DNA of 64,000 bases from assembly GCA_018646105.1 (NCBI GenBank), contig JABGVJ010000099.1, positions 5,387 to 69,386 of the forward strand, given 5' to 3'. Below the pieces are notes generated by a model. That model saw only the letters and a program-made list of their open reading frames with translations, had not been told where the DNA came from and did not search any database. Made by a program: the position numbers and the translations under genes. Shown here one piece after another: positions 4,719-24,625 of the stretch. This stretch comes from a bacterium (lineage in GTDB: Bacteria; Margulisbacteria; Marinamargulisbacteria; JABGVJ01). Numbering within the stretch: position 1 is the stretch's first letter; each line of letters starts with the position of its first letter.

Positions 4719-4761
4719 GGCCTCACCCCCTAGCCCCCTCTCCATATTAATGGAGAGGGGG
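4719..4761. repeat. REP-like GC-rich palindromic element, copy 1 (GGCCTCACCCCCTAGCCCCCTCTCCA tattaa TGGAGAGGGGG)
   Basis: 11-bp perfect stem with a 6-nt loop. Near-identical copies at 5022-5064 and 24582-24625, and degenerate copies at 10963-11012 and 17890-18210. Confidence 0.7.
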
Positions 4762-4785
4762 AATAACTAAGGAATATTATTGGTA

Positions 4786-4814
4786 TTGACGAGCTTTTTT
4801 GTGGGTGTTATAAT
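4786..4814 (+). promoter_or_regulatory. Near-consensus sigma70-type promoter: TTGACG, 17-nt spacer, TATAAT
   Basis: -35 at 4786-4791 and -10 at 4809-4814, on the + strand. The nearest downstream ORF (MATE, 5231) is over 400 nt away. Confidence 0.45.
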
Positions 4815-5021
4815 TCCCCTTACCTAAATTTTGTGAGTGTGTAAAAATGTATAATCAAATGCTACGCTTTTTTTGTCTTTGTGTTTTTGGGCTAATCTAG
4901 CCTGAGGATATCTTTTTAATTTTTCAATTTAATTGTGAGAGAAAGAATATATTTACCGGCTTAGGCTAGGTGTGTTTTTTGGGAGTGATGTGCCCCCCCT
5001 TAGATGAGATGCAAAGGATAA

Positions 5022-5064
5022 GGCCTCACCCCCTAACCCCCTCTCCATATTAATGGAGAGGGGG
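5022..5064. repeat. REP-like palindromic element, copy 2. Its 3' tail AGAAGGGAAAAGCATAATTATGAAA runs to 5096.
   Basis: Same 11-bp stem and loop as copy 1. The tail is shared with copy 3. Confidence 0.7.
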
Positions 5065-5155
5065 AACAATAATAGAAGGGAAAAGCATAATTATGAAAGA
5101 TGGGTACAGGTTTGTGGTCATAAGGATTGAAGATTAAAAAAGGAGGTGGAGAAAA

Positions 5156-5218
5156 GTGAAGAGAAACAACAGAAGGTTTGGAATGGTTATTAAAGGAAGA
5201 TGTAATTTTTGGATGTAA
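5156..5218 (+). CDS. Upstream small ORF, 20 codons (V/M-KRNNRRFGMVIKGRCNFWM). It has the strongest SD in the region and sits just before the MATE gene.
   Basis: AAGGAGGTGG at 5140-5149, 9 nt before the GTG at 5156. Its stop (5216-5218) overlaps the weak SD of the MATE ORF. Confidence 0.3.
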   Translation: MKRNNRRFGMVIKGRCNFWM

Positions 5219-5230
5219 GGAATAAAGAAA

Positions 5231-6661
5231 ATGAGTTATTTAAAAAATTTATATAAAGAGATGGATATTAAATTGAAGTATCCATTGGAACGCATGGTTT
5301 TAAGAAAAATGCGAGGAAGAGGCGGTATTAAAGAGCTGATAAGGATTGCTTTACCTTTTGTTCTGTCAATGTTGTCGTTTACGGTATTGGGGTTTGTAGA
5401 TAGGGTCTTTTTGTCTTGGTACAGTATAGAGGCGGTAGCTGCAGCAATGCCTGCTTTGTCTTTGACGTGGCTGTTTTTTTGTATTTTTACAGGGACCGCA
5501 GGGTATATCAATACTTTTATTGCCCAATATTATGGAGCTAATGATAAGCGGCATGTGGCAAAGATGTTTTGGCAGGGAGTTTATTTTTCTCTAATGGCGA
5601 TTGTGCCGTTTTTGTTGTGTTTGCCATTGGGACGTATGTTAATTAATTATTTTCATGGGTCAGCTGGTTTTGTGGAACAGGAATTGATTTATTTTTCAAT
5701 TTTGATGCAAGGCGGGTTTCTGGCTATTTTATTGCAGGTGCCAGCTAGTTTTTTTTCTGGGTTAGGGAAAACGCATATCAATATGTACGCGACGTTTATA
5801 CAGGTGATCGTGAATCTATTATTTGATTATCTTTTGATTTTTGGGAATTTTGGGTTTCCACAAATGGGGATGGCAGGGGCTGCTTTGGCTACGGTTTTGG
5901 CATGGGCTAGTTCGGTACTATTTTATTTTGGGCTAATTTTTCAGAAGAAGTATCGTTTGAAGTTTAGAATACATAAATTGTATCAGTTTAATAAAGTGCT
6001 TTTTGTTAAATTATTAAAGTATGGATTGCCTAATGGACTGAGTTTTTTTGTTGGAGAAATGAGTTTTGCTTTTTTTAATTTGATTATTGGTTTGCTAGGA
6101 ACGGTTGCGATGGCGGCGAGTAATATTGTAATTTCTATTTATCTTTTTGCTGTTTTACCGGTTTTTGGATTTGGGTTAGCAACTTCGGTTTTGATAGGGC
6201 AGTATATTGGTAGGAAAAAGAGAAAAATTTGTGACAAAATTATTTTTAATGTTTTTATGTTAACTTTTATTTATGTTTTTTTTGTTTTATGGATGATTTT
6301 TGGATTGGAAAATGTCTTGTTGGGTGTTTTTAATAAGACCGGATTAGCGGAGTTTGAAGAGATTACGTTGATTGCTAAAAAACTTATTTTATTGTTTCCA
6401 ATTTTGTTAGTGGGGGAGATTGTATACCAGATTTATGCAAATGCCTTGAATGGTGCCGGAGATACGAAATTTAAAATGTGGGCTATTTTTGTGATCACGT
6501 TTATTTTTATGAGCTTAGAATATGTCGTGATTGTGATGTGGGGCTGGCCGATTATGTATATTTGGCTTTTGGCGGGTTTGCATTATTTTGTGATGGGACT
6601 GGTGTTATATTTTCGTTATAAGATGGGTGTTTGGAAGACTATAAATATTCATGGTGATTGA
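5231..6661 (+). CDS. MATE-family multidrug/oligosaccharidyl-lipid efflux transporter (NorM-like)
   Basis: 476 aa, 12-TM pattern with a two-repeat architecture. The true start may be an internal Met. Confidence 0.7.
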   Translation: MSYLKNLYKEMDIKLKYPLERMVLRKMRGRGGIKELIRIALPFVLSMLSFTVLGFVDRVFLSWYSIEAVAAAMPALSLTWLFFCIFTGTAGYINTFIAQYYGANDKRHVAKMFWQGVYFSLMAIVPFLLCLPLGRMLINYFHGSAGFVEQELIYFSILMQGGFLAILLQVPASFFSGLGKTHINMYATFIQVIVNLLFDYLLIFGNFGFPQMGMAGAALATVLAWASSVLFYFGLIFQKKYRLKFRIHKLYQFNKVLFVKLLKYGLPNGLSFFVGEMSFAFFNLIIGLLGTVAMAASNIVISIYLFAVLPVFGFGLATSVLIGQYIGRKKRKICDKIIFNVFMLTFIYVFFVLWMIFGLENVLLGVFNKTGLAEFEEITLIAKKLILLFPILLVGEIVYQIYANALNGAGDTKFKMWAIFVITFIFMSLEYVVIVMWGWPIMYIWLLAGLHYFVMGLVLYFRYKMGVWKTINIHGD

Positions 6662-6683
6662 TTTGTAGTATCATATTTGCAAT

Positions 6684-7526
6684 ATGATTAAATTTTTTGA
6701 TTTTTTAAGCCAAAACACCTTGTGTGTTACTAAAGAATGTATCTTACGATGTGAGCATTGCCATCTTTGGTCTAACCCGGTTTTTCAGAAAATAAAAGTC
6801 CCTAAAATAAGTGATGATGGTTTTGACTTGTTTAGGAGTTTGTCAGATCAGGAGCGAAATCGTAAATTAACGGCAGTAGGGGATGTCTCTGATTTAATTC
6901 AAGCTGGGCAGTTCTTTAAAACGTTTAAGAAGGCAAAAGTTTTTAATGTCATAGGTGGAGAGCCCTTGGTTTGCAAAGAATTGCCTTATATCCTGGGTTT
7001 TTTGCAAAAGAATAAGATTAAAGTAAGGTTGTGGACGAACGGTGTTTTTAATCTGGATGTTCTGGATCAGGTAAAAGACTTGGTAGATGAATTTTGTTTT
7101 TATTTGCCAAGTTGTGACAAAAAAGGGTATAGGCTGCTTACGGGTTTTGATGGGTTAGGAATATTAGAAGAAAATATACGTTATTTGCAAGCCGAAAAAC
7201 GGCATGTGATATTAAATCATTTTGTGACAAGATCGTCACTTCCTGATTTGCCAGAGGTTTATGAATATGCACGAAAGTTTGATTTAAGGTTATATTTAAA
7301 TTATTCGGTGCATGCCAAATTTCAAAGGGAATCAATCGCTTATATTAAACGGTTTAAAAAGGAACGTAAGGTGATGGTTTTGAGAAAGAAGAATTTCGGA
7401 CAAGATGTTTGTGCAGGGGTACATTTTGATTTATGGCCTAGACATGATTTGGAGACGATTTGGTTTCAGGGACAAAATTGTTTTCAAGAGTTCATGAGAA
7501 ATTTGGCATGGTCTTTGCATGTTTAA
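6684..7526 (+). CDS. Small radical-SAM domain protein
   Basis: CxxxCxxC (C-ILR-C-EH-C) near the N-terminus; GGEPLV motif; 280 aa. Confidence 0.5.
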   Translation: MIKFFDFLSQNTLCVTKECILRCEHCHLWSNPVFQKIKVPKISDDGFDLFRSLSDQERNRKLTAVGDVSDLIQAGQFFKTFKKAKVFNVIGGEPLVCKELPYILGFLQKNKIKVRLWTNGVFNLDVLDQVKDLVDEFCFYLPSCDKKGYRLLTGFDGLGILEENIRYLQAEKRHVILNHFVTRSSLPDLPEVYEYARKFDLRLYLNYSVHAKFQRESIAYIKRFKKERKVMVLRKKNFGQDVCAGVHFDLWPRHDLETIWFQGQNCFQEFMRNLAWSLHV

Positions 7527-7568
7527 TTGGTACCTCATGAAAAATCTCATGTTTATACAGACGTTTTT

Positions 7569-7597
7569 TTGCTTTGGAGATAGTTTTGCTTTATAAT
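7569..7597 (+). promoter_or_regulatory. Candidate sigma70 promoter for proS: TTGCTT, 17-nt spacer, TATAAT
   Basis: -35 at 7569-7574 and -10 at 7592-7597. RBS AAGAGGT at 7620-7626; ATG at 7633. Confidence 0.45.
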
Positions 7598-7632
7598 AAT
7601 AAAAAATTATTCTTAGAAAAGAGGTTTAAGTC

Positions 7633-9138
7633 ATGAAAACAGCGATTACGCCAACCAGAGACGAAGATTATGCTCAATGGTACCAGGAAGTAGTGAAAGC
7701 TTCGGATTTGGCTGAAAATTCACCGGTGAGAGGCTGTATGGTGATCAAACCGTGGGGATATGCGATTTGGGAAAATATTAGAACGATTATGGATCGGATG
7801 TTTAAAGAGTCTGGTGTAAAAAATGCTTATTTTCCTTTATTTATTCCTTTAAGTTTTTTAGAAAAAGAAGCAGAGCATGTGGAAGGGTTTGCGAAAGAAT
7901 GTGCGGTAGTAACCCATCATAGATTAGAGAAAGGGCCAAACGGAGGGTTAGTACCAGCAGGACCTTTGGCAGAGCCTTTGGTGGTACGGCCTACTTCAGA
8001 GACAATTATTGGTGATTTGTTTGCTAAATGGACTAAGAGTTATCGGGATTTACCTATTTTGATTAATCAATGGGCTAATGTTGTGAGATGGGAAATGCGG
8101 ACGCGTTTGTTTTTGAGAACAACAGAGTTTTTGTGGCAGGAAGGCCATACGGTACATAGTAGTAAAGAGGAAGCGGAAGAACGTACGTTGATGATGTTGG
8201 ATGTATACGAAAAATTTGCTCGTGATTATTTGGCGATACCGGTGATTACAGGTAGAAAAACTGCAGGGGAGAGATTTCCTGGTGCGGTAGATACGTTTTG
8301 TATGGAAGCAATGATGCAGGATCGTAAGGCCTTACAATTTGGAACGTCGCATTTTTTGGGGCAAAATTTTTCTAAAGCAGCGGAAATTAAGTTTCAAACA
8401 GTTCAGGGTACAGAAGAATATGCATGGACTACGTCTTGGGGTGTGTCTACAAGGATGATCGGTGGAATGATTATGGCACATTCTGATGATGATGGTTTGG
8501 TATTACCTCCACGGGTAGCGTCTAGTCATGTGGTTTTAATGCCGATTATTAAAAGAGAAGAAGATCGGTCTAGAGTAATGGATTATACAAAAGGTTTGGC
8601 TCAGGATTTAAAGAACAAATTTTATGTTTATCGTAATTTAGAAGTGGAAATTGATACCAGGGACGTTGGTGGTAGAGCATGGGATTGGATAAAAAAAGGG
8701 ATTCCGGTAAGAGTAGAGATTGGGCCTAAAGAAGTAGATCAAAAAACAGTTTTTGTGGGTAGGCGAGATAAAAGTCCTAAAGATAAAGCGGCCTTGGATA
8801 AAGAGGTTTTTAAAGAGCAGATACTGGATATATTAGAAGAGATACAACAAAATATTTTGGTACGAGCAAAAACATTTAAAAAGAAAAACACAGTTGTGAT
8901 AGATGAAAAACAAAAATTTTATGATTTTTTCACACCTCAAAATAAACAAAAACCAGAAATTCATGGCGGTTTTGTTCTAGCACATTGGTGTACAAATGAG
9001 GCTTGTGAAAACAAAATTAATGAAGATTTGAGTGTTACTATTAGATCAGTACCTTTAACACCAAAAACTGAAAAAGGTAAATGTATTTATTGCGGAAAAG
9101 ATAGTACGCAACGTGTGGTATTTGCTAAGGCCTATTGA
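7633..9138 (+). CDS. proS: Prolyl-tRNA synthetase, archaeal/eukaryotic type with a C-terminal zinc-binding domain
   Basis: 501 aa. Class II core; no bacterial INS editing domain. C-terminal HWCTNEACE...CIYCGK Cys cluster is typical of archaeal-type ProRS. Confidence 0.9.
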   Translation: MKTAITPTRDEDYAQWYQEVVKASDLAENSPVRGCMVIKPWGYAIWENIRTIMDRMFKESGVKNAYFPLFIPLSFLEKEAEHVEGFAKECAVVTHHRLEKGPNGGLVPAGPLAEPLVVRPTSETIIGDLFAKWTKSYRDLPILINQWANVVRWEMRTRLFLRTTEFLWQEGHTVHSSKEEAEERTLMMLDVYEKFARDYLAIPVITGRKTAGERFPGAVDTFCMEAMMQDRKALQFGTSHFLGQNFSKAAEIKFQTVQGTEEYAWTTSWGVSTRMIGGMIMAHSDDDGLVLPPRVASSHVVLMPIIKREEDRSRVMDYTKGLAQDLKNKFYVYRNLEVEIDTRDVGGRAWDWIKKGIPVRVEIGPKEVDQKTVFVGRRDKSPKDKAALDKEVFKEQILDILEEIQQNILVRAKTFKKKNTVVIDEKQKFYDFFTPQNKQKPEIHGGFVLAHWCTNEACENKINEDLSVTIRSVPLTPKTEKGKCIYCGKDSTQRVVFAKAY

Positions 9139-9149
9139 AGGTATTTTGA

Positions 9150-10922
9150 TTACAACGAAATGTCTGTTTCAATGCCTAAATCAAATTGAGTATTGGAGTA
9201 GCCTTGATTGAGGGCTACGGTAAACGGTAATTGATTAGCGGTGGGTCCGAAATATTGTCGTGGTCCCGGACTGCTAAAACAGTCGGTTTCGGCCCAATGA
9301 GATCGTCTTTCGCTAAAAAATTCGAAAGCTGGAGACTTTAAATCTACGAGCGCTTTTTGAATCACCATTTCATTTTTCCCGCTTCTTTTTTCTAGAGTGA
9401 TGAGCCCGGATAAAGGAATAGCTATAATTTGACTATTTTGATCAAGATTAGTGATAGAGGCTAGATACCCGGTATGGTGCTCTAAGGCCAAGGAACCTGC
9501 GGTTAAACCTAAATTAACAGTATAGGCAGCATCGAAGGTAGAGGGAGCGCCGCAACGTCCTTCATAGCCAAAAAAATGATGGTTTGTGGCAAATTTGAAT
9601 TTATGGATTTTTTCAATATCATCTTGATTCGCATTGATATTTAAAGCATAAAGTAATTTCTGAGGATCATTTTTGAGACTTTGAATTTTACGTTTAAGCA
9701 TTTCTATTAATAGTTGTTCAGTATCTATTTGGGAAACTTGTAGGTTACCATGCGAGTCTCTATTTAAGAGTAATTTTTCTTGAATGTTTTGTGGTAAACT
9801 GCTGAAAAGTTTAGCTGATTTCTCATTGATTTTACTAATAATTAATTCTTTTTTTTCAGAAAATAAATTTATTTGAGCAAGTTCTTTTTCTTGTTGTGCC
9901 AAGGTATTATTGAGTTCTTGGATCAGGATTTGAAATTCAGGAATAAATTCAATGAGTCCTTCGGGGACTAGGACAAGGCCGTGGTGGAGACCTTTGAAAT
10001 ATCTTTTAAGAATAATTTTTAAAATATAAGTAATAATATCGTTTAAAGACATTTTTTTCTGCGCGATTTCTTCAGAGATAAGGGTGATAGGCGGTTTGGT
10101 TTGGAGCGCAACTTCTAAGGCTACGTGACTGGCACTACGACCCATGACTTTGATGAAATGCCAATATTTGTGGGATGAAGGGGTGTCTTGCAAAATATTG
10201 CCGGTGAGTTCGGCATAGATTTTGGTAGCAGTATCAAAACCAAAAGTAATGGGTAAAAGATGATTAACTTGTAGATCGCCGTCAATAGTTTTAGGTACGC
10301 CAATAACAGCACATTTGAGGTCAAATAAGTATTCGGCTAAAATGGCCGCGTTGGTATTGGAATCATCGCCGCCAATAATAATTAGACCATCTAACTGATA
10401 TTGAAGGACTATTTTTTTTACTTTGTTAAATTGTTCAGGTGTTTTTATTTTTGTGCGGTCTGACCCTAAAAAATCAAATCCGCCTAGATTAAGGATGTGC
10501 GTAAGTTTTTGAGAAGTGATCTCAAATAACTCGCCGTTTAAAAATCCTTTAGGTCCGTTTTTGATACCGTATAAAGTATTGTTTTCACCTAAAGCGAGTT
10601 TGATGCCTACTAAGACATTGTGCCCACCGGCTGCAGGGCCGCCGGAAAAAAGTACGGCGATTTTTTTTCCTTTGATGAGTGTGGATTTAGTATTTCCTTG
10701 TAAAACCTGATTTTTATTTTGTTGTATAGTATTTTTAAAATATTGGTTTACAGCTGTGGAATTGCTGTTTAATTTTTGTGGAGTTTGAGTAAATGAGCAA
10801 GCTTGTACAGTATTGTTTTGGATAAAGGTGGGGTGAATAAATAGTTTTAGTTTTTTAAAGGTTTGTTCTAAAAAAGAATTGTTTTTTTCAGTTTGAATAA
10901 TTATTTTTTTCAGTTTATCCAT
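9150..10922 (-). CDS. pfp: Pyrophosphate--fructose-6-phosphate 1-phosphotransferase (PPi-PFK), long form
   Basis: 590 aa. LFSGGPAAGGHNV and GGDDSNTNA motifs (GGDDS rather than GGDGS indicates the PPi-dependent type); MGR motif. Confidence 0.85.
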   Translation of the reverse strand: MDKLKKIIIQTEKNNSFLEQTFKKLKLFIHPTFIQNNTVQACSFTQTPQKLNSNSTAVNQYFKNTIQQNKNQVLQGNTKSTLIKGKKIAVLFSGGPAAGGHNVLVGIKLALGENNTLYGIKNGPKGFLNGELFEITSQKLTHILNLGGFDFLGSDRTKIKTPEQFNKVKKIVLQYQLDGLIIIGGDDSNTNAAILAEYLFDLKCAVIGVPKTIDGDLQVNHLLPITFGFDTATKIYAELTGNILQDTPSSHKYWHFIKVMGRSASHVALEVALQTKPPITLISEEIAQKKMSLNDIITYILKIILKRYFKGLHHGLVLVPEGLIEFIPEFQILIQELNNTLAQQEKELAQINLFSEKKELIISKINEKSAKLFSSLPQNIQEKLLLNRDSHGNLQVSQIDTEQLLIEMLKRKIQSLKNDPQKLLYALNINANQDDIEKIHKFKFATNHHFFGYEGRCGAPSTFDAAYTVNLGLTAGSLALEHHTGYLASITNLDQNSQIIAIPLSGLITLEKRSGKNEMVIQKALVDLKSPAFEFFSERRSHWAETDCFSSPGPRQYFGPTANQLPFTVALNQGYSNTQFDLGIETDISL

Positions 10923-10962
10923 TTATTTTATTCCTTTGTTTAATAGTCGTTTAGGTTTGAAA

Positions 10963-11012
10963 AGCCTCTTAAGCCTCACCCCAAGCCCCTCTCCATAAAT
11001 GTAGAGGGGCTT
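10963..11012. repeat. Degenerate REP-like element, copy 4 (AAGCCTCACCCCAAGCCCCTCTCCA taaatg TAGAGGGGC)
   Basis: 8-bp stem. Lies in the divergent pfp/dxs promoter region. Confidence 0.55.
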
Positions 11013-11112
11013 AATTTAGTTTTTATTGAAGGCCTAAAAAACTTTTCCTAAACCTGTATTGATACGTTTGATACCCTTTATTTTACAAGGGTTTGATATT
11101 ATAATCCATATT

Positions 11113-13026
11113 ATGGAAAAACGATTGTTAGAAAATTTGAGTTTGCCCCAAGATTTAAAAAAATTATCTAAAGCTAAATTAGAACAGTTAGCCATAGAAT
11201 TAAGAGAAAAGATTATTGAAATTGGGGATGTTTGTGGCGGGCATGTAGCTTCCAATTTGGGGGTTGTGGAACTGACGTTAGCTTTACATACGGTTTTTGA
11301 TAGTCCTAAAGATCAGATTGTTTGGGATGTAGCACATCAGTGTTATTCACATAAAATGTTGACTGGTAGACAGGATAAGATTTTAACGATCAGACAGTTT
11401 AAAGGATTGTCTGGTTTTACCAAGATTAGTGAAAGTGAACATGATGTTTTTGGAGCGGGGCATTCTTCGACTTCTATTTCTGCGGCTTTAGGATTAGCGC
11501 ATGCGAGAGATTTGCAGCATAAAAAAAATGCGGTGATTGCGGTTATTGGAGATTCTTCTTTTGCTAATGGAATGGCCTTTGAAGCTTTGAATAATGTGGA
11601 AAAATTGAAAACCAATTTTATTTGTATTTTAAATGATAATGATATGTCTATTTCTAAACCCATAGGTAGTATGTCTAAATATATAACTTCTGTACGTACT
11701 TCACAGGTTTATAATAAAGCTAAAAGAAAATTTGAAAAGCTTTTTAAAAGAATTCCTAAAATAGGCGTGCCTTTAACCAGAAGAATAGAAAAAATGGTGG
11801 AAAGATTAAGACACGTAGTTCTGGATATGAAATTTGATGTTTTGTTTGAAGAATTTGGTTTTAAATATTTGGGTCCTTTGGATGGACATGATGTATTGGT
11901 TATGATGGCGGCCTTAAAGTATGCTAAGTCATATAAGGGCCCTATTATGTTGCATGTGATTACGCAAAAAGGAAAAGGGTATACTCCGGCTGAAGATAAT
12001 CCAACAAAATATCATGGGATACAACCTAAAAAAAATAAAAGGATAACAAGTAATTTAATTACATATCAAGAAGTTTTTGGTGAGGAAATGTTGAAAATAG
12101 CTAAAAAGCGAAAAGAAGTGGTAGCGATTACGCCGGCTATGACAGAAGGAAGTGGGTTAGTAGAGTTTGCTAAAAAATATGCGAAACGGTTTTATGATGT
12201 GGGCATTGCTGAAGGGCATGCTGTAACTTTTGCGGCAGGGTTGGCTAGAGGAGGATTAAAACCGGTTTTGACTATTTATTCTACTTTTTTGCAAAGAGGT
12301 TTTGATCAGGTGGTGCATGATGTATGTTTGCAAAATTTAGGGGTGGTTTTGGCTATTGATAGAGCCGGGTTTGTGGGAGCTGATGGTCCTACGCATCATG
12401 GAATTTTTGATTATAGTTATTTGTTACCAATACCTAATTTGACTATTTTAGCGCCTAAAGACGGAACAGAGTTAAGACAGATGTTGAATTGGGCTATGGA
12501 ATATAAAGGGCCTGTTTCGATTAGATATCCGCGTAGTAGAGTTCCTTTAGAAGATGGGACAGTTAATACTAAATTAAGTAAAGGTAAAGCAGAAGTGATT
12601 TTTGAAAATAGGGGAGATAAAACGAAAAAGCCGTATCAGGTTTTATTGCTGGCAGCAGGTTCTATGGTTTGGCCGGCAGTACGGGTGACGGAACGTTTGG
12701 ATGAGAAAAAGGTTTCGGTAGCAGTGATTAATTTGAGATTTATTAAACCTTTGGATATTAAGTTATTAAAAGAATATGTAGAACAGGCTAAATTGATTTA
12801 TGTTTTAGAAGAAGGTAGTGTGATCGGCGGCGTTTATGCTTATATTTTAGAACAATTAGATATAGAAGATTCAAAAGCACGGAATATGTTTAAGCAGATA
12901 GCTTTGCCTGATAAATTTTTAGAACATGGTAGTGTAGATCAATTAAAAGATAAATACGGGTTATCGGAAGAAAAAATACTTGCCCGTATTTTAGGTGATT
13001 TAAGTATTTTGCCAAAGTCCGTGTAA
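11113..13026 (+). CDS. dxs: 1-deoxy-D-xylulose-5-phosphate synthase. The start is more likely the [12 protein letters not shown] Met at 11113 than the ORF-track start at 11059.
   Basis: Thiamine-diphosphate binding GDS...NDN region ([16 protein letters not shown]...[10 protein letters not shown]); transketolase-like Pyr and C-terminal domains. Confidence 0.9.
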
Positions 13027-13377
13027 ATTACAATATGCTCTAGCGTTAAAGCTGGTAGCGGTAATGCAAAATTCTGCTTCCGGGCTATTTCCGGGTTTGA
13101 GTTGTTTCCTATAAACTTGGTTGTTTGCTAATAATTCGATCCATTCAATGAAATGTTTTTCTTCCATAGGATGAGTTGTACTTCCTACTTTGATTTTTAA
13201 ACCTTGAGCTGTTTTTTCAATTACAGGGACGTGTTTTTCCTGTGCCGCGTCTGTGGTGTTTTCTTGCATTAAGTTCATTTTTTGACCACAGCAAACTAGT
13301 TCGCCCATGGAAGCATGGACCATTTCTACGATATTGCCACAAATAGTGCATTTATAAATTTGATTTAATTTAGTCAT
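13000..13377 (-). CDS. dfx: Desulfoferrodoxin (2Fe superoxide reductase)
   Basis: 125 aa. N-terminal desulforedoxin Cys4 (CTICGN...CCGQ); C-terminal SOR domain (HVPV, His ligands, C-NLHGLW). Convergent 27-nt overlap with the dxs 3' end. Confidence 0.8.
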
Positions 13378-13450
13378 TTTGAATTACTCCTTTTGAATGT
13401 TTTTTTCGAATCGTTTCTATGAAAATATTAACATAGTTTTTGTTGGAACG

Positions 13451-13496: not shown

Positions 13497-13512
13497 TTTT
13501 AAAGAAGAAGGT

Positions 13513-15932: not shown

Positions 15933-16454
15933 ATGAAACCAGAGATGCGAAAAGCGATTGTGGAAAATAAAGGATGTGCTGTTATTTTAGCGGGTTCAGA
16001 TAGTGATGAAGAACATATTAAAAAAATCATTAAATCTTTAGAAGAATATGAAATATCTTATGAAGTAATGATTTGTTCTGCGCATAAGCAAACTGCGGAA
16101 CTTTTGCAAATCACCCAAGAATTAAATTCTATTAATGGGGCCGTAGTTTATATCGCGGTGGCTGGTGGTACGGACGCGCTTTCTGGGACATTATCTTTTT
16201 ATACGTTGGCGCCGGTGATTAGTTGTCCGCCGGATATGGCTAATACAAGTGCGTTAACTAATCCTCCTGGGAGTTCCAATGCCGTAATTGCGAATCCTAA
16301 AAATATTGGTAAATTTGTAGCGCAGATGTTTGCTTTTATAAATTCTAAGTATGTAAGATTGATTAAAGAAAGAAATGCTCAAAAGCTTACTAAATTACAG
16401 GCTAATGGTACGCGTATAAATAATAATTATGTAAAGGTATATGAAAATGACTAA
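15933..16454 (+). CDS. purE: PurE-family protein (N5-CAIR mutase/AIR carboxylase) with a C-terminal extension of about 40 aa
   Basis: ILAGSDSDEE and CSAHKQT (SAHR-like) motifs; AGGTDALSG; PVISCP. Confidence 0.65.
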   Translation: MKPEMRKAIVENKGCAVILAGSDSDEEHIKKIIKSLEEYEISYEVMICSAHKQTAELLQITQELNSINGAVVYIAVAGGTDALSGTLSFYTLAPVISCPPDMANTSALTNPPGSSNAVIANPKNIGKFVAQMFAFINSKYVRLIKERNAQKLTKLQANGTRINNNYVKVYEND

Positions 16455-17880: not shown

Positions 17881-17889
17881 TTAAGTTTA

Positions 17890-18210
17890 ATACTCACCCC
17901 CTGTCACCTGCAGTGACATCCCTTTCTCTTAAGAATACACTAGCATCCGGAGAAATCCGCAAAAAAACAAGTGCCCTCACCCCGGCGCTTCGCGCCACCC
18001 CTCTCCCGTGGAAACAGAATAAATTACTCAGTTAGTTTATATTCGGGAGAGGGGAATTGGTTATGGATAATTTTATCAATAAATCCACAATATATTCCCC
18101 CTCTCCCGAATATATCCTTACTGAAAGATATGATAGCTTCTCCACGGGAGAGGGGGCTAGGGGGTGAGGGCATTGGTTTTTTAAATAGGAGAAGGGTGAG
18201 GCCTAAGGAA
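17890..18210. repeat. Composite head-to-head REP-like structure between convergent purB and serS. It has nested inverted repeats, arms A/A' and B/B'.
   Basis: A = CCACCCCTCTCCCGTGGAA (17997-18015) pairs with A' = TTCTCCACGGGAGAGGGGG (18138-18156). B = TATTCGGGAGAGGGGAA (18039-18055) pairs with B' = TTCCCCCTCTCCCGAATA (18095-18112). A forward core is at 17975-18010 and a reverse-complement core (GGAGAGGGGGCTAGGGGGTGAGGGC) at 18147-18172, followed by a T6 run. Confidence 0.6.
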
Positions 18211-18215
18211 ATTTT

Positions 18216-19502
18216 TTATTTAGTAGGATTTATTCTATCAAAACCAGTAAATTTATGTAGTACTTTAGGAATGAGGACTGACCCGTCAGGTTGTTGGAAT
18301 TGTTCGACAATCGCAGGTAGCAGGCGGCTGGTAGCTAAACCGGAACCGTTTAAACTATGGATAAACTCGTTTTTACCAGTTGTTTGATTTTTGAAACGAA
18401 TGTTGCCACGACGGGATTGATAGTCACAGGAATTGGAAACAGAGCTCGCTTCTTTATAATCATTCATACTGGGGATCCAAATTTCAATATCATAAGTGGT
18501 GGTCATAGCTTCGGAAACATCTGCGGCAGCGAGTTTGGAGAGTTGATAGTGTAGTCCTAATCCCTCGACAAGCCCGCAAGCTTTTTTGATGAGTTCTTGA
18601 TGCGCTTGGTTGGAATGTTCTGGTTTGGTGAATTGAAACATTTCTATTTTATTGAATTGGTGGCCGCGAATCATGCCGCGTTCTGCTGCACGGTAACTGC
18701 CTGCTTCTTTGCGATAGCATGGGGTATAGGCAAAATATTTTTTAGGTAGTTCAGTTTCTGGGATGATTTCATCACGATGATAGTTTATAAGTGCCGTTTC
18801 GGCGGTGGGTAACATAAAAGCATGATGGCCTTGCCCATCTTCTTGTTGCATCAGATAAACATCATCTTCAAATTTAGGAAATTGGCCAGCTGTATAACCG
18901 CATTGATAATTTAAAATATGCGGAGGTAAGATAAATTCATAACCGTCTTTCAAGTGGGTTTCGATAAAATAATTGAGTAACGCCCATTCTAGTTGTGCGC
19001 CAAGGCCTTTATAGAGCCAGAAACCGTTACCACCCATTTTAACGCCACGTTCATAGTCAATGAGGCCTAGATCAGTGACTAGCTGAAGATGATCTTTGGG
19101 CGTGAAATTAAATTTTGGTTTTTGACCAAAAGTAGAGAGGACCTGATTATTTTCTTTGTTGCCGGCTACTACATCATCTGCGGGGATATTGGGTAGCATG
19201 GCTAGGAAATGTTGAATTTTTGGTTCAAGTTCACATAGTTTTTCGTCTAAGGTTTTGGTTTTTTCAGAAACAATTTTCATTTTAGCTAAAAGATGTGTAA
19301 CATCTTGATTTTGTTTTTTGAGCGCAGGGATTTGACTAGATACCTGGTTTTTTTGCGCTTTTAAGGTTTCTACTTCTTGTAAAAGTTGCCGGCGTTCTTT
19401 ATCCCAAGCCAGTAACTCGGTAAAATCTATTTTATCGCCTCTTTTAAGTAGAGCTTTTTGAATTTTTTCCGGATTTTCTCTGATTTTGTTGATGTCTAGC
19501 AT
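18216..19502 (-). CDS. serS: Seryl-tRNA synthetase
   Basis: 428 aa. N-terminal coiled-coil arm and class II core (FEDDVYLM.., GHHAFMLPTAE, RGNIRF). Confidence 0.9.
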   Translation of the reverse strand: MLDINKIRENPEKIQKALLKRGDKIDFTELLAWDKERRQLLQEVETLKAQKNQVSSQIPALKKQNQDVTHLLAKMKIVSEKTKTLDEKLCELEPKIQHFLAMLPNIPADDVVAGNKENNQVLSTFGQKPKFNFTPKDHLQLVTDLGLIDYERGVKMGGNGFWLYKGLGAQLEWALLNYFIETHLKDGYEFILPPHILNYQCGYTAGQFPKFEDDVYLMQQEDGQGHHAFMLPTAETALINYHRDEIIPETELPKKYFAYTPCYRKEAGSYRAAERGMIRGHQFNKIEMFQFTKPEHSNQAHQELIKKACGLVEGLGLHYQLSKLAAADVSEAMTTTYDIEIWIPSMNDYKEASSVSNSCDYQSRRGNIRFKNQTTGKNEFIHSLNGSGLATSRLLPAIVEQFQQPDGSVLIPKVLHKFTGFDRINPTK

Positions 19503-19634
19503 AATGTATGATTGTAGTTGGTTTTTTGATGCTCGTCAAAGGGGAAAGTGGTTGCCTATTTGGGTGGATTGAAATATACTTTTGGAAGAATTAAAGGTGT
19601 ATTTTGATTTTAGAAAGTGAGTGGGATTTTAGAT

Positions 19635-20570
19635 ATGAAAAAGATTATTTTTGTTTTGTTATTAATTTTAGGTTTTTCAGGGATATTATGGGCAAATCAG
19701 GTTATTGAAGTAGGAGATACGCTTTCGTTTTATGCTGTGGATGATAAGCAAACAGATTTGATTTTGGGGTCTGTAGTTCAGGATGCGAGTTCTGTGGTTG
19801 ATAAGTTGCATGATAGGGTAGTTTCTAGTAGTGGTGAAGTATATTTGATAAATATTGGTATTTTTAAAGTAGTAGGAAGAACTATTCCAGAAGTTGAAGA
19901 CCTGGTTTTAAGAAAATTAAAAAGACATTATAAGTATGTAGAAGTTAAGGTGCTTTTAAAAAATATTAGATTGAATCGAATTTATGTTTTAGGGGAAGTA
20001 GTAAAACCAGGTCTTTATGAAATACCAGGGTATGACAAAATTAGAAATAAATTGATGAATGTTATTAATTTAGCGGGAGGGTTCAAAACCCAGGCTGATT
20101 TGAAAAATGTTTTAATGATGCGAAAAGGGGGGATTACGCATATCGCTGATTTATATAAGTTAATAAATAAAAATGATTTGAGCCAAAATTTGTCTTTAGA
20201 AGATGGGGATACGATTTTGGTTAAACGTACGTTTGTTAGTATATATATTTTGGGTCAGGTTAATAAGCCAGGAAGTTATCCCTACATACCAGATGCGAAT
20301 TTTATGGATTATCTTTCAGAAGCTGGTGGTTATACTGAAAAAGCTGATACAGGTAATGTTGGAATTGTTAGAAGAAAAAAGGAAAGAGTGGAAGTTTACA
20401 GAATAAGAGCAGATTTATTTAATTTTAATAATGATACTTTGAAATTCGCATTGCAAGAAGGTGATATTGTTTTTGTGCCGAAACATTTTTTTGCAGATTG
20501 GAAAGATATTGGCGCATTCTTAGGACTTGCAAGAAATACGATTTATTTTTATGACATGATTACGAATTAG
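19635..20570 (+). CDS. Polysaccharide export protein, Wza/KpsD-like with SLBB domains. Start set at MKKIIFVLL.
   Basis: Signal peptide; polysaccharide-export and SLBB-like segments. It is the first gene of the EPS locus. Confidence 0.65.
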   Translation: MKKIIFVLLLILGFSGILWANQVIEVGDTLSFYAVDDKQTDLILGSVVQDASSVVDKLHDRVVSSSGEVYLINIGIFKVVGRTIPEVEDLVLRKLKRHYKYVEVKVLLKNIRLNRIYVLGEVVKPGLYEIPGYDKIRNKLMNVINLAGGFKTQADLKNVLMMRKGGITHIADLYKLINKNDLSQNLSLEDGDTILVKRTFVSIYILGQVNKPGSYPYIPDANFMDYLSEAGGYTEKADTGNVGIVRRKKERVEVYRIRADLFNFNNDTLKFALQEGDIVFVPKHFFADWKDIGAFLGLARNTIYFYDMITN

Positions 20571-21248
20571 ATGATTGATATTCATAGTCATATTTTGTAC
20601 GGAATTGATGATGGAGCAGAGGCCATAGGGGATTCCGTGAAAATGGCTGTAATATATGAAGTATTAGGTTTTAAAAAAGTATATTGTTCACCGCATGTGA
20701 TGAATTTTTATTATGAAAATGATTTAAACAAAGTGGTGCAAAGATGTGCGGAATTACAAGAAGTTTTAAACAAAGAAAAAATAGAGCTAGAGTTGATACC
20801 TTTTGCAGAAGTTTATTTGGATGAGTCAGTACCCGCAAAGGTAGCGCAAAAAAAATTGCCTGTAATTAATGGTAAATTATTAGTGGAAGGACCTTTAAAT
20901 GAGTGGCCACCTTATTTGGAGGAGATTTTATTTGCGATTAAAATTTACAATGTGTGTCCTATTATCGCACATATAGAAAGAAATCGAGATTTACAAAAAA
21001 ATTTGGCTAAGATTAGGCAATTAAAAGAAGGTGGATGTTTGATCCAAGGAAATATTTTGAGTATAACAGGGTATTATGGGGCATCTGCCAAGCGTTGTTT
21101 TGAGGAATTATTAAAAGCAGATTTATATGATTTTTTAGCCACAGATATGCATAATGCAGAAAATAATGTGGCGATGTATCGAGAGGCAATGGATAAAGCG
21201 AAAAAGTTGGTGGGTGAGCAAGTTAAAGCGTTATTCAAGGAGGTTTAA
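20571..21248 (+). CDS. CpsB/YwqE-type PHP-domain protein-tyrosine phosphatase
   Basis: MIDIHSHILYGIDDGA N-terminus with a PHP His/Asp metal motif; 225 aa. Confidence 0.75.
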   Translation: MIDIHSHILYGIDDGAEAIGDSVKMAVIYEVLGFKKVYCSPHVMNFYYENDLNKVVQRCAELQEVLNKEKIELELIPFAEVYLDESVPAKVAQKKLPVINGKLLVEGPLNEWPPYLEEILFAIKIYNVCPIIAHIERNRDLQKNLAKIRQLKEGGCLIQGNILSITGYYGASAKRCFEELLKADLYDFLATDMHNAENNVAMYREAMDKAKKLVGEQVKALFKEV

Positions 21249-21252
21249 GTAA

Positions 21253-23124
21253 ATGGAAATTTTAGATTATTATTACATGTTTTTAAGAAGAAAATGGGTA
21301 TTTGGACTGGCTTTTGTCTCCTGTATATTGATTATGCTTATTTGGTTAGTTAATGCGACTCCTATTTTTAAGGCTGAGGCGAAGTTGTTGTTTCACGGGT
21401 CGGCGATTGCTAGTATTATGAATATTAGCTCTACAGATGCTACAGCTGACATATCTACTCAAATGGAGCTTATAAAGACAAGACCGATAGCTAAAGCAGT
21501 TGTTCATAAGCTTAAATTAGTGGATGAAGCAGGGAATTTTTGGGATGAAGGTGGTTTGGCAGGAGGGGTTATAGTAGAGGCGGTTAGAGGTACTTCTATT
21601 TTTATGCTTGCATATAGACATAAAAATAGAAAGTTAGTGACTGATATAGTAAATGCGTTTGCGCAAGTAGTGGTTGAGCAAAATAGAGAAGTTAATCGAG
21701 AAGAATATCAATTAGCGATACGTTTTATTGAAACGCAAATTGAGAAACGTAGAGATGGTTTTGAGCGGAGCCAACAAAAATTACTTGATTTTCTAAAACG
21801 GGAAGATTCAGTAGCAGTATCAAAAGAAACAGAAATTCTAGTTGCTCGGTTAGTTTCTTTTACAACGACTGAAGTTGATTTGGCATCAGAAATAGAAGTA
21901 GCTAATGCGAAAATGGTTGCATTAAATAAAAAGATAATACAAATGAGTAACATTAATGCTCCTTTTATTTCACAATGGAAAAACGAAGTTAATCAATTGA
22001 ATATTGGTTTAACAGGATTGAATGCACGTAAAACTTTTTTACAAAATGAGATTCTGGAAATAAAGAATGAAATTAGTAAATTGCCTCCTAAAGAATTGCT
22101 TTATGCGCAATTAGTAAGTGAATCTAATTTTGAGAATAAACTTTTAAATAATCTGTTAATTAAATTAGAAGAGACCAAAATTTTTGAAGCTGCGAAAATA
22201 GCATCTATTAGGATTGTTGAGCCGGCGATTATGCCGAAATCCCCTGTTTTTCCGAATAAAAAGAAAGTTTTACTTTTGGGTATTACTATGGGTTTAATGG
22301 CGGGCGGAGCTTTGGTATTACTTTTGGAATATTTTGATCAAGGTTTAAGAAGTCTGGATGAGGTTAAAGAAATTACAAATTGGGCTAGGCTAGGGGTAAT
22401 ACCTAAAGATAAAGACGATCAAGATTTTGAATATTTGATTACTAAGGCGCATCCCAAATCACCTATTTCGGAAAGTTATCGAGGTTTGCGTACAAATATT
22501 CATTATACGGCTGTGGATAAAGAGATCAAAAGTTTGGTGGTGACTAGTAGCGCGCCGGGAGAAGGAAAAACTACGGTAATGACGAATCTGGCGTTTACCC
22601 AAAGTATTTTAGGTAAAAAAGTTTTATTGATGGATGTGGATCTTCGAAAGCCCAAAACACATAAAAAATTTGGTTTGAAAAATACTGTGGGTTTGACCAG
22701 TGTTTTGGTGGGATCAATAGATTTAGAGAAAGTTATTCAGGAAACGGGTATTCCTAATCTTTTTGTTTTAACTGCAGGGCCGATTCCGCCAAATCCTGCA
22801 GAATTGATTGAGAGTAAGAAGTTTAGTGAAATGTTGGAACAATTAAAAAAAGAGTTTGATTTGGTGTTATTGGATTCACCACCATTTCAGGCAGTAACAG
22901 ACGCAGCGATTCTTTTTAAGAAAGTTGATGGTTATATTTTTGTGGTGGATATAGAAAAAACTACACGAGATTTATTAAAACAAACCTCAGATCATATCAA
23001 GCAAATGAATTTACCGCCATTGGGGTATGTGATTAATAATTTGGCTTTGGATAAGAATAAGTATTATGGGAAGACTTACTATTATCATTATGATTATAAT
23101 AGTAAATCTAAACCAAAGCGGTAA
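21253..23124 (+). CDS. Wzc-like polysaccharide co-polymerase fused to a BY tyrosine kinase
   Basis: Wzz-like periplasmic coiled-coil N-terminal part with two TM helices; Walker A SSAPGEGKTT; C-terminal Tyr-rich tail YYGKTYYYHYDY. Confidence 0.75.
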   Translation: MEILDYYYMFLRRKWVFGLAFVSCILIMLIWLVNATPIFKAEAKLLFHGSAIASIMNISSTDATADISTQMELIKTRPIAKAVVHKLKLVDEAGNFWDEGGLAGGVIVEAVRGTSIFMLAYRHKNRKLVTDIVNAFAQVVVEQNREVNREEYQLAIRFIETQIEKRRDGFERSQQKLLDFLKREDSVAVSKETEILVARLVSFTTTEVDLASEIEVANAKMVALNKKIIQMSNINAPFISQWKNEVNQLNIGLTGLNARKTFLQNEILEIKNEISKLPPKELLYAQLVSESNFENKLLNNLLIKLEETKIFEAAKIASIRIVEPAIMPKSPVFPNKKKVLLLGITMGLMAGGALVLLLEYFDQGLRSLDEVKEITNWARLGVIPKDKDDQDFEYLITKAHPKSPISESYRGLRTNIHYTAVDKEIKSLVVTSSAPGEGKTTVMTNLAFTQSILGKKVLLMDVDLRKPKTHKKFGLKNTVGLTSVLVGSIDLEKVIQETGIPNLFVLTAGPIPPNPAELIESKKFSEMLEQLKKEFDLVLLDSPPFQAVTDAAILFKKVDGYIFVVDIEKTTRDLLKQTSDHIKQMNLPPLGYVINNLALDKNKYYGKTYYYHYDYNSKSKPKR

Positions 23125-23157
23125 ATTTTGATTTATGCCTGGTCTAAAATCAAAATT
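23124..23157 (+). terminator. Weak AT-rich hairpin (AATTTTGATTT-loop-AAATCAAAATT) with T-rich trailer between the wzc-like gene and the sugar-transferase gene
   Basis: 10/11-bp inverted repeat immediately after the stop codon. Low stem stability. Confidence 0.25.
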
Positions 23158-23205
23158 TATTTTGTTTTGATTTGGATTAAAATTATTTTAATACGGAGTT
23201 AAGCA

Positions 23206-24582
23206 ATGCTGAGAAGATATTCGACGACGATTAGACGAAGTGAATATGTACTTGATTTTTTAATCAATGTTTTGATTTTAGGTGTTTTGATTAAATCATC
23301 GAAATATTTTGAACTTAATTTACATACTATTTTTAGTTTTGCAGTTTTATTTGTAGTAGGTCAGATTTTGATTTTTCGGGTTTTGGGTTTGTATGGGTCC
23401 AGGCGGTTTAGGTCTTTATTGCAACAATTGGTTTTAATTACTACCAGTATTTTAATTCATGCAGTATTGGTAAGTGTTTTTTATGCAGGTGCGCGTTTTT
23501 TCTTGGATTTTTCTTTAATTTCTTATATAAAATTGTTGATGACCTATTATTTAGTAGCGATGCTTTTATATTTAGTCAAAGGTTTGTTAGTGAAAAGTGT
23601 GACTTTTTATTGGCGTACTAGAGGTTATAATTCCAGGTATGTGTTATTGGTAGGGGAAGATGCGTTAGAAGAGGTGGTTTTAGATTTTGAAGAAAATAGT
23701 AAATTAGGCATAGCGATTATTGGATATATAAGTAGTAAGCCATTAACTAATTTTAAATTAACCAATTTTAAATTAAATTATTTGGGAGATTATACTGACT
23801 TTGAGCAGGTTTTGAATAACAAAGTGGTGGATCAGGTGGTTTTAGTGCCGGGTAAAGAGTATCAAGAGCAATATCAAAAAATGATGACTTTGATGAAGTT
23901 GCATGGAAAAGAATTTTATATTTATAAGGTAGAAGATAGTGAGCCATTTAAGCAAAATAGTTGTTTGTTTTGTGACAAAGTTTTTAGAATGAATAAAAGA
24001 ATTTTTGATTTAGTGGTTTCGTTGATTTTATTGTTTTTTTTAGCGCCTTTGTTGTTAGTTGTGGCCTTAGCGATTAAATTAACTTCGTCTGGACCAGTAT
24101 TTTTTAAACAAAAACGGATGGGGAAAAACCGACGTTTGTTTGTTTTATATAAATTCAGGTCAATGTGTGTGGATGCAGATAAAAAGAAAAAAGTCTTGAT
24201 GCAGTTTAATGAAATGCAGGGCCCCGCATTTAAGATGAAAAATGATCCGCGTGTCACTAAAATTGGTAGCTTTTTAAGAAAAACTAGTTTAGATGAATTA
24301 CCTCAATTAATTAATGTTTTGCGAGGTGAGATGTCTTTGGTAGGACCAAGACCGCCGTTGCCGGCAGAAGTAAAGGAATATGATGATTGGCATAATAAAA
24401 GATTGTCTATAAAACCAGGTATTACTTGTATTTGGCAGGTGTCTGGTAGAAATGAAATTCAAGATTTTGATGATTGGGTGAATTTGGATTTGGAATATAT
24501 TAAGACACGGTCGTTTAAACATGATATTAAGTTGTTGTTGAAAACTATTCCGGCGGTGTTTAAGTCTAGGGGGGCTTCTTAG
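23206..24582 (+). CDS. Undecaprenyl-phosphate sugar phosphotransferase (WbaP/CpsE-type initiating transferase)
   Basis: 458 aa. N-terminal TM helices plus a C-terminal bacterial sugar transferase domain (KFRSM, PGITCIWQVSGRNE). Confidence 0.8.
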   Translation: MLRRYSTTIRRSEYVLDFLINVLILGVLIKSSKYFELNLHTIFSFAVLFVVGQILIFRVLGLYGSRRFRSLLQQLVLITTSILIHAVLVSVFYAGARFFLDFSLISYIKLLMTYYLVAMLLYLVKGLLVKSVTFYWRTRGYNSRYVLLVGEDALEEVVLDFEENSKLGIAIIGYISSKPLTNFKLTNFKLNYLGDYTDFEQVLNNKVVDQVVLVPGKEYQEQYQKMMTLMKLHGKEFYIYKVEDSEPFKQNSCLFCDKVFRMNKRIFDLVVSLILLFFLAPLLLVVALAIKLTSSGPVFFKQKRMGKNRRLFVLYKFRSMCVDADKKKKVLMQFNEMQGPAFKMKNDPRVTKIGSFLRKTSLDELPQLINVLRGEMSLVGPRPPLPAEVKEYDDWHNKRLSIKPGITCIWQVSGRNEIQDFDDWVNLDLEYIKTRSFKHDIKLLLKTIPAVFKSRGAS

Positions 24583-24625
24583 GCCTCACCCCCTAACCCC
24601 CTCTCCATATTAATGGAGAGGGGGG
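24582..24625. repeat. REP-like palindromic element, copy 3. It starts at the stop codon of the sugar transferase gene, and its tail supplies the RBS and ATG of wecB.
   Basis: Identical core to copy 2. The tail AGAAGGAAAAAGCATAGCTATGAAA ends in the wecB start codon at 24653. Confidence 0.7.

Follow-up and report, generated by a model that had tools for sequence, protein, structure and literature searches.

GC-rich three-block mirror repeats in an uncultured AT-rich bacterium, their likeness to BoxC/PIT/TM elements and the association of such repeats with DUF559 nuclease genes in other bacteria

Enterobacteria, cyanobacteria and many other bacterial groups are rich in repeats of the BoxC/PIT/TM type, which are tied to local genome instability. 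These repeats have been known since the 1990s, when BoxC was reportedly described by Bachellier and coworkers; to our knowledge, neither their function nor their origin nor the mechanism by which they spread has been found. Here, we analyze a 64,000-nt stretch of contig JABGVJ010000099.1 (assembly GCA_018646105.1, positions 5,387 to 69,386; henceforth termed the window) from an uncultured, AT-rich bacterium, in which a dispersed, GC-rich three-block element resembling these repeats is found between housekeeping genes. Elements with the same core occur in many other bacteria, where they repeatedly bracket a small gene of the DUF559 family. The repeat family itself is thus already known and functionally unsolved, and the link to DUF559 is what is new here: it was not found in the literature searched (DUF559; Vsr-like together with REP). 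We regard it as the most valuable outcome, as it provides a lead on how the family originates and spreads.

The motif was named BoxC in Escherichia coli, then PIT element (Hoyne et al. 2000), and then TM/TMECO (Holder et al. 2015, PMC4666352). TMECO is the class II intrastrand triplex motif CCCTCNCCC-N3-6-GGGNGAGGG-N3-GGGNGAGGG with TTA or CCG as the second loop, and E. coli K-12 contains 23 intergenic copies, of which five belong to inverted pairs (PMC4666352). The isolated TMECO strand forms a stable triplex in vitro, as judged by circular dichroism and nuclear magnetic resonance (Holder et al. 2015, PMC4666352). TMECO loci vary more between E. coli strains, tying the motif to local instability, and Holder et al. 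never found remnants of transposases or integrases near it (PMC4666352).

In the window, one element of 41-45 nt is represented by four solos, an inverted doublet and two remnants, as revealed by direct reading and a tolerant pattern scan. Each unit comprises, in this order, an outer C-block (O5, CCTCACCCCC), a 3-nt linker, a C-arm (I5, CCCCCTCTCC), a loop, and a G-arm (I3, GGAGAGGGGG), with blocks of 10 nt each. O5 is the mirror image of I5, except for one exchange of T for A. The 23-mer CCTCACCCCCTARCCCCCTCTCC occurs exactly at 4721(+), 5024(+), 24584(+) and 18147(-), compared to 0 expected in 100 shuffles, and its 9-mer core CCCCTCTCC occurs 11 times where 0.16 are expected. The 11-bp stem lengthens to 12 bp on folding, which leaves 4 nt in the loop, and the predicted free energies range from -25 to -33 kcal/mol (z-scores of -2.9 to -4.5). 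These counts and the direct reading agree with an initial annotation of this DNA, which had described GC-rich palindromes dispersed between the genes of an AT-rich bacterium; its coordinates for three solo units (4719-4761, 5022-5064 and 24582-24625) were confirmed on the + strand. Of the roughly 43-nt unit with a perfect 11-bp stem that it had proposed, the stem length stands, but the copy at 10972 contains one mismatch and the loops in the doublet measure 39-40 nt. The degenerate copy that it had placed at 10963-11012 is real but starts at 10972, and the supposed composite at 17890-18210 does carry units, which form an inverted doublet (17973-18056 on the + strand, 18096-18172 on the - strand) accompanied by two remnants. 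Whole solo units measure 60-63% GC in a window of 32%, below the approximately 70% suggested earlier, because the loop is AT. Finally, the 5' segment CCTCACCCC had been treated as flanking sequence and is actually the mirror copy of the stem arm.

This outer block defines the architecture. Read on the - strand, the units have the form CCCCCTCTCC-loop-GGAGAGGGGG-TTA/CTA-GGGGGTGAGG, i.e., a pyrimidine arm, a purine arm, and a mirror purine block. When the third block is laid antiparallel on the purine arm, only G.G-C, A.A-T and T.A-T triples can form, at 10 of 10 positions in the window core. The mirror block covaries with the stem across at least 20 sequence variants. Among 52 distinct asymmetric purine arms taken from hairpins beside DUF559 genes (see below), 20 have a perfectly triple-compatible 3' neighbor in mirror register, almost always at a spacing of exactly 3 nt, as opposed to two in direct register; in 1000 trials with shuffled arm pairings, 2.1 of the 52 were mirror-compatible on average and 6 at most. 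Covarying pairs are exemplified by GGAGAAGGGG-ctg-GGGGATGAGG, GGAAAGGGGG-cag-GGGGGATAGG and GGGAAAGG-aaa-GGATAGGG. We also considered a G-quadruplex reading, which some variants would allow (GGGGGAGGG-ccg-GGGTGGGGG), but the canonical core has two long G-runs only, and such a reading fails to predict mirror covariation position by position. With H-DNA mirror repeats, the units share the mirror symmetry of a purine/pyrimidine tract and the link to instability, but they add an inverted repeat to the mirror repeat; therefore, one strand can fold into a hairpin plus third strand while the long duplex stays paired.

As the outer block mirrors the C-arm, the units belong with the BoxC/PIT/TM intrastrand-triplex repeats. 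The G-rich strand runs in the same order (pyrimidine arm, loop, purine arm, 3-nt loop, mirror purine block), its core letters are GAGAGGG ... GGGTGAG, and the second loop is TTA, or CCG in GC-rich hosts. Blocks of 9-10 nt, intergenic location, and tens of near-identical copies as solos and inverted pairs are likewise shared. Tested against the TM definition, the window units combine Watson-Crick arms with a third G-rich block on one strand, and they are multicopy, intergenic, and present as four solos and one inverted pair. The first loop of the solos, nominally 8 nt, shrinks to 4 nt upon pairing of 4 of its bases and lies within the required 3-6 nt, and the second loop measures the required 3 nt in the solos as well as in the right-hand unit of the doublet. 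Exceptions are confined to the doublet, with first loops of 39-40 nt instead of short ones and a 13-nt mini-hairpin in place of the second loop in its left unit; neither the long loops nor a mini-hairpin in the linker is a TMECO trait. The register differs as well, with 2G-A-G-A-5G / 5G-T-G-A-2G in the window versus 3G-A-G-A-3G / 3G-T-G-A-3G in E. coli. Owing to this shift, the exact TMECO pattern does not match the window blocks (GGAGAGGGGG / GGGGGTGAGG), and the units are placed in the wider G/C-rich TM family. By their sequence, we provisionally file them as a register variant of this family, neither TMECO proper nor REP (repetitive extragenic palindrome). Further differences from TMECO concern the host, here an uncultured bacterium of 32% GC; the orientation, with a sense bias here versus none among the 23 copies of Holder et al. 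(PMC4666352); and the presence of a candidate mobility gene, DUF559 here versus none reported there.

The core is not restricted to this lineage. A scan of 185,579 species genomes with the pattern CCTCACCCC-N4-CCCCCTCTCC matched at least 118 stretches, and the 23-nt core is present exactly in at least 10 phyla; it is therefore not a genome-specific REP. Among the matches listed, to which the copy counts given here also refer, are Chloroflexota, Bacteroidota, Cyanobacteria, Gemmatimonadota, Planctomycetota, Acidobacteriota, Armatimonadota, Ignavibacteria, Melainabacteria and several proteobacterial classes, at loci ranging from 33% to 78% GC. The G-arm is kept in 123 of about 135 copies, following a free loop of 3-23 nt, and the bases after it are AG, AA or GA in 94 of these 123; an outer block on both sides occurs in only 7 of about 135. 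Linkers are most often CGG, followed by TGG and CAG and then by TAG/TAA, with other third bases occurring too. The window has the AT-most forms, TAA/TAG, and GC-rich genomes have CGG/TGG/CAG, a variation which indicates that the linker is weakly constrained and drifts with host GC. Viral contigs in IMG/VR contribute 97 further core-bearing stretches, with 0 matches to the window-type variant (stem plus ATATTAAT loop) in an exact scan of that collection. Searching the literature for the sequence itself yielded nothing but primers and promoters from eukaryotes. Identity with a known structured RNA had been named by the initial annotation as a finding that would speak against its reading; Rfam scans at gathering level covered the window as well as four foreign loci and gave no match, with an E-value scan of approximately 4500-5300 yielding weak RsaJ matches only (E=0.16). 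The reach of the family is hereby extended to an uncultured AT-rich lineage that carries the GC-rich core almost unchanged.

DUF559 genes are associated with these units both statistically and architecturally. In a Hymenobacter locus, a DUF559 open reading frame (ORF) is enclosed by two facing units 454 nt apart. Throughout the motif-selected loci (approximately 1.8 Mb, drawn from the matches listed), which were searched by tblastn and with a hidden Markov model built from 80 relatives, we found five DUF559 genes, all within 150 nt of a unit, and four of them in the layout O5-I5-loop-I3, gene, I5-loop-I3-O3. The probability of five such adjacencies arising by chance is about 1e-7. Gaps between facing units are bimodal in this set, with 37 doublets at 10-111 nt and a separate cluster at 387-458 nt in which every gap holds a DUF559 gene. 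The bracketed unit spans 0.46-0.54 kb and its gene encodes about 110-130 amino acids. In a reverse test on 80 metagenome loci chosen solely by DUF559 protein similarity, canonical-like units lay within 260 nt of the gene in 45, and many of the remaining loci exhibited divergent variants in the same layout. A purine-arm hairpin lies within 200 nt of the gene in 76 of 85 DUF559 loci, and where hairpins occur on both sides, they belong to the same variant class in 30 of 46. Hairpin density is 4.96 per kb near DUF559 and 0.21 per kb farther off on the same contigs, a 24-fold local enrichment. Among six named records that were checked, five have hairpins near DUF559 in variable layout (Sinorhizobium meliloti pSymB, Pseudanabaena, Azospirillum, Deinococcus and Neisseria gonorrhoeae).

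The proteins match PF04480 at E-values of 1e-29 to 1e-36, as well as PDB 3hrl (8e-28) and, more distantly, the homing endonuclease I-Bth0305I (3r3p, 7e-7), which identifies DUF559 as a Vsr-like PD-(D/E)xK nuclease fold. Fold and E-x-D-G-x-x-H region are common to the unit-adjacent proteins, to Vsr, and to EDxHD/Vsr-like homing endonucleases such as I-Bth0305I, i.e., selfish genes that spread via DNA breaks and repair. The unit-linked genes differ from homing endonucleases in being free-standing, about 110-130 codons long, and bracketed by repeats rather than located in introns or inteins.

A DUF559 gene also lies beside a TM copy in E. coli. In K-12, TMECO #9 is located 168 nt 3' of ycjD (DUF559) in the expected orientation, and a truncated TM extends over the stop codon of this gene; the chance of such proximity is about 0.002. 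The gene is present in 3378 of 5426 complete E. coli genomes (62%). Its site, fabI-sapF, is occupied in other phylogroups by the eef efflux operon (eefRABCD island). Complete E. coli genomes carry between 1 and 27 TMECO-like 36-mers (median 15). LF82, M1/5 and LS999560.1 are among those that have 1-4 copies, and the absence of ycjD was confirmed for LS999560.1 only. We rejected a comparison of TMECO copy number with ycjD as a test, since it is confounded by phylogroup (O157:H7, ycjD-negative, 12 copies). At the K-12 locus (NC_000913.3, 1,351,040-1,351,830), a partial duplicate of the ycjD 3' end lies between the truncated TM and TMECO #9, and a palindrome with 16-bp arms (CACCTCATTCTGACAA...) is found upstream of the gene. 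A small nuclease gene that is repeatedly bracketed by repeats, which also stand beside ycjD, turns a descriptive puzzle into a problem that can be tested in E. coli K-12.

The units are also biased in position and orientation. All window units are intergenic and lie at housekeeping genes (birA/MatE transporter, PPi-PFK/dxs, purB/serS, and sugar transferase/wecB), and in all six complete ones the C-rich strand is sense to the neighboring transcription unit. Genes in foreign loci were called with a crude finder based on GC3, which reproduces the genes of the window. Sense orientation prevails there over antisense in co-directional spacers of genome loci (31:13 among the matches listed, p=0.0096) and in viral contigs (54:12, p=2e-7), yielding 85:25 overall; the viral counts are not independent, as many of these contigs are interrelated. 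The median distance past the stop codon is 26-36 nt, and convergent spacers outnumber divergent ones by 21:9. No T/U-tract follows the hairpin on either strand, and a terminator scan placed no site at the units, in line with the initial statement that they are not canonical terminators. The orientation bias fits an RNA-level role of the C-rich strand and equally fits selection on the placement of the G-rich strand, namely against the triplex-prone strand serving as non-template or lagging-strand template; transcription and replication directions coincide in the window (GC skew about +0.3). As the units are sense-biased at gene 3' ends, they might conceivably stabilize mRNA.

Taken together, we consider it probable that the window sites are TM-family three-block copies, gene-less derivatives of a nuclease-associated selfish element that persist as passengers at gene boundaries. 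The parent would be the arrangement seen in other bacteria, in which two inverted units with a DUF559 gene between them may form one selfish unit. Gene-less inverted doublets and solos far outnumber DUF559-bracketed units, and we therefore read them as gene-less derivatives of such units. Copies might spread, or be kept uniform, through repair or recombination triggered by the nuclease at the folded repeat. Horizontal transfer probably brought the element into this AT-rich lineage, where it then spread locally. Its copies would be tolerated chiefly a short way past stop codons, oriented so that the transcript carries the C-rich strand and the triplex-prone G-rich strand serves as template. In having terminal inverted repeats and multiple gene-less copies at gene boundaries, such derivatives resemble miniature inverted-repeat transposable elements (MITEs) and in-frame palindromic elements (Correia/NEMIS, Rickettsia RPE); unlike with MITEs, no DDE transposase was seen between facing units and no direct target duplication at the doublets, and the commonest form is a single-ended solo. 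A broader proposal, which we regard as possible but short of probable, is that DUF559 proteins of the Vsr-like/EDxHD type are the missing partner of BoxC/PIT/TM repeats at large. They would then constitute a nuclease-driven system in at least 10 bacterial phyla, analogous to REP and its transposase but with a distinct mechanism in which the folded hairpin plus third strand is recognized, with the window units as gene-less offspring.

Several observations weigh against this derivation from a nuclease-associated element, in addition to the crude gene calls and the interdependence of viral contigs noted above. We know of no PD-(D/E)xK nuclease that acts as a transposase on its own. The window and approximately 13 kb of adjoining sequence (about 77 kb sampled) contain no DUF559 gene, and four DUF559 homologs on viral contigs as well as the one on pAQ6 of PCC 7002 are not flanked by units. 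O157:H7, which has no ycjD, still has 12 TMECO-like copies. Protein similarity and repeat variant covary weakly (p about 0.01; nearest neighbor 26/56 versus 18 expected), which argues against tight protein-DNA coevolution and is not counted as support. In the data examined, there was no clean pair of empty and filled sites, no target-site duplication, and no direct sign of mobility; BLAST of flanks among 320 loci yielded mostly repeat-to-repeat matches and variants in related viral contigs, with no clean empty site. The relatives of this lineage, by contrast, speak for acquisition of the units; the nearest in protein databases share 98% and, next, about 70% SerRS identity. The former has a serS-purB spacer of 131 nt versus 335 nt here; these 204 nt approximate the 200-nt doublet, yet the difference is known from gene coordinates alone, from which we infer that the doublet is missing there. 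The relative at 70% identity (31% GC) has no units in 21 kb. Finally, in vivo dimethyl sulfate footprinting detected no triplex at TMECO, and neither did the duplex form in vitro exhibit one (Holder et al., PMC4666352).

Other explanations account for parts of these data. The initial annotation had favored REP or bacterial interspersed mosaic elements (BIMEs) and a REP-associated tyrosine transposase (RAYT) as their partner. The likeness is considerable, since the units are short GC-rich intergenic palindromes found singly or as REPIN-like inverted doublets, and since in both systems one small nuclease-type gene is found between two inverted repeats alongside hundreds of gene-less copies. REPs are, however, lineage-specific, with sequences confined to a species or genus, whereas the core of the units is identical across at least 10 phyla; moreover, REPs lack the third mirror block. 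The only gene found to recur between inverted units is a PD-(D/E)xK Vsr-like DUF559 and not an HUH Y1 transposase, and the 387-458 nt class contains no Y1 transposase among the matches listed. With E. coli RayT as the query, tblastn found nothing at E<=0.01 in the 2.2 Mb of loci that were retrieved, the window included, albeit with the limited sensitivity of a single-sequence search. Mobilization by RAYT is accordingly highly improbable. The units might instead be independent of the nuclease and merely its target, with DUF559 as a free-standing homing-type gene: gene-less doublets would be cut and the gene copied in by repair, with the units as homology arms. The relation to I-Bth0305I fits this account, as does the finding that the gene always lies exactly between facing units, in place of the 10-111 nt spacer of doublets. 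Units are also vastly more numerous than genes, persist in ycjD-negative E. coli, and covary weakly with the protein. If this account is true, the nuclease explains where the gene is located and not how the repeats spread; the origin of the repeats and their identity across phyla would thus be left unaccounted for. Homology arms of about 40 nt are, in addition, short for RecA-dependent homing, and an empty/filled pair was not observed in the data examined. As an explanation of solos and doublets, homing is as live as their derivation from a DUF559-bracketed unit; as a whole, we deem it rather unlikely.

The orientation data bear on the idea of a host-selected RNA element at mRNA 3' ends, in which a hairpin, possibly extended to a pyrimidine-motif triple helix by the 5' C-block, blocks 3' exonucleases or aids termination and DUF559 is incidental. 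This idea accommodates the 85:25 sense bias, the 26-36 nt median distance to the stop codon, the 21:9 excess of convergent spacers, the uniform sense orientation of the six window units, and the high stability of the hairpin. Yet there is no U-tract after the hairpin, a quarter of the copies are antisense, and selection against the G-rich strand as non-template or lagging-strand template explains the bias equally well. A mere hairpin would not need exact sequence conservation across phyla, and five consecutive C+.G-C triples are unfavorable at neutral pH. Pyrimidine-motif triplexes are possible in RNA according to work cited in PMC4666352, but E. coli PIT elements are cited there as having neither promoter nor terminator activity (Hoyne & Maher 2002), and overall we consider an RNA element unlikely. 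Still less can be said for non-mobile, triplex- or H-DNA-prone DNA that is kept because it raises local recombination and variation, as speculated by Holder et al. (PMC4666352). The greater variability of TMECO loci among E. coli strains reported there, the position of ycjD and its TM in the fabI-sapF replacement hot spot, and a 78-nt segmental copy that includes a unit in the window (described below) speak for this possibility. Second-order selection for variability is weak, however, and identical sequences in distant phyla, inverted pairs, and a nuclease gene between units are left unexplained, which renders it quite improbable. We thus retain the derivation from a DUF559-associated element as the preferred reading.

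Within the window, units are found only between 4.7 and 24.6 kb. The solo at 4719-4761 (+) starts 9 nt past the birA stop codon and consists of outer C-block 4721-4730, linker TAG 4731-4733, C-arm 4734-4743, loop 4744-4751 and G-arm 4752-4761. The solo at 5022-5064 (+), upstream of the MatE gene, has its outer block at 5024-5033, linker TAA, C-arm at 5037-5046 and G-arm at 5055-5064. The degenerate solo at 10972-11012 (+), between the divergent genes for PPi-PFK and dxs, has 9-nt blocks, linker AAG and a single stem mismatch (GTAGAGGGG). In the convergent purB/serS spacer, the left unit of the doublet (17973-18056, +) is composed of outer block CCCTCACCCC, a 13-nt GC mini-hairpin replacing the linker, a C-arm, a 39-nt loop and a G-arm, and the right unit (18096-18172, -) reads CCCTCACCCCC-TAG-CCCCCTCTCC, 40-nt loop, GGAGAGGGG on the - strand. 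Of the two remnants, one (17892-17935, +) lacks the G-arm and retains the outer-block-like ACTCACCCCC, a mini-hairpin and what is left of a C-arm, and the other (18186-18203, -; GGCCTCACCCTTCTCC) is an outer block fused with a decayed arm. The first base of the solo at 24582-24625 (+) is the last base of the sugar-transferase stop codon, and wecB starts 28 nt past the unit; its outer block lies at 24584-24593, followed by linker TAA, C-arm 24597-24606 and G-arm 24615-24624.

The segments 5021-5098 and 24581-24658 share 91% identity across 78 nt, i.e., 35 nt past the unit, with similarity reaching 5098. Both contain a Shine-Dalgarno sequence and ATGAAA, whose ATG is the wecB start at 24653 and opens only a 14-codon ORF at 5094. 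More than the unit itself was thus copied. Between the two direct units at 4719 and 5022, the 260-nt spacer (4762-5021) harbors a near-consensus sigma-70 promoter at 4786-4814 (TTGACG-17-TATAAT with upstream TG, 11/12 matches) and a terminator-like hairpin at 4881-4911, the spacer giving no Rfam match; it could encode a small transcript or contain the MatE promoter. Units also have consequences for annotation, as they yield spurious ORFs: a 138-aa ORF at 17971-18387 (+), annotated as a gene in public assemblies, is the translated doublet, overlaps the 3' end of serS, has no Pfam match, and is almost certainly spurious.

In other genomes and viral contigs, the units occur in further contexts. 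In a Bacteroidales metagenome-assembled genome (CAIWMX010000024.1, locus positions 1-260), a tandem array with a 78-nt repeat contains one triplex-type unit per copy; a CRISPR-like reading of its three copies with 78-nt period was rejected, as the entire 78 nt repeat and the structure is a plain tandem array. Units stand in frame within ORFs (...PSPPSPLSQGGEGE...) in the related IMG/VR contigs L125, L142, L145, L151, L199 and L202, reminiscent of Rickettsia RPE. In L151, an additional outer block and a 15-37 nt insert ending in CCCCGGAG lie directly 5' of two units, which suggests that the outer block is a hot spot of insertion or duplication. The ends of doublets are inverted, and in L077, L113, L119, L112, L226 and others, the sequence outside the outer blocks is often mutually complementary over 1-14 nt and not directly repeated; either the palindrome extends outward, or doublets insert into, or are fold-back copies from, existing palindromes. 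Two larger intervals between facing units were set aside as potential cargo and read as pairs of independent solos: the 654 nt in L153, presumably encoding a phage head-tail connector-like protein as judged by eye, have no DUF559 match, and a 468-aa ORF in L069, which we take to be Hen1-like, lies between units 1.8 kb apart at gene ends.

Units are absent from 25-64 kb of the window, and near-identical public contigs (GCA_018657345.1 and several ENA assemblies), from which the flanks were taken, contain none in the 6 kb upstream or the 6.7 kb downstream. No tRNA, rRNA or other Rfam family was found in the 64-kb window. The part from 32000 to 64000 is a long polysaccharide-biosynthesis locus of 25-30% GC with a flippase, epimerase/dehydrogenase fusions, a heparinase II/III-like protein and a CotH/beta-helix protein, and it may be a variable island of recent acquisition; that it has no units is weak evidence for their spread within resident DNA. 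GC skew is +0.25 to +0.45 nearly throughout the window and reverses only at 28-32 kb, where the genes are on the - strand.

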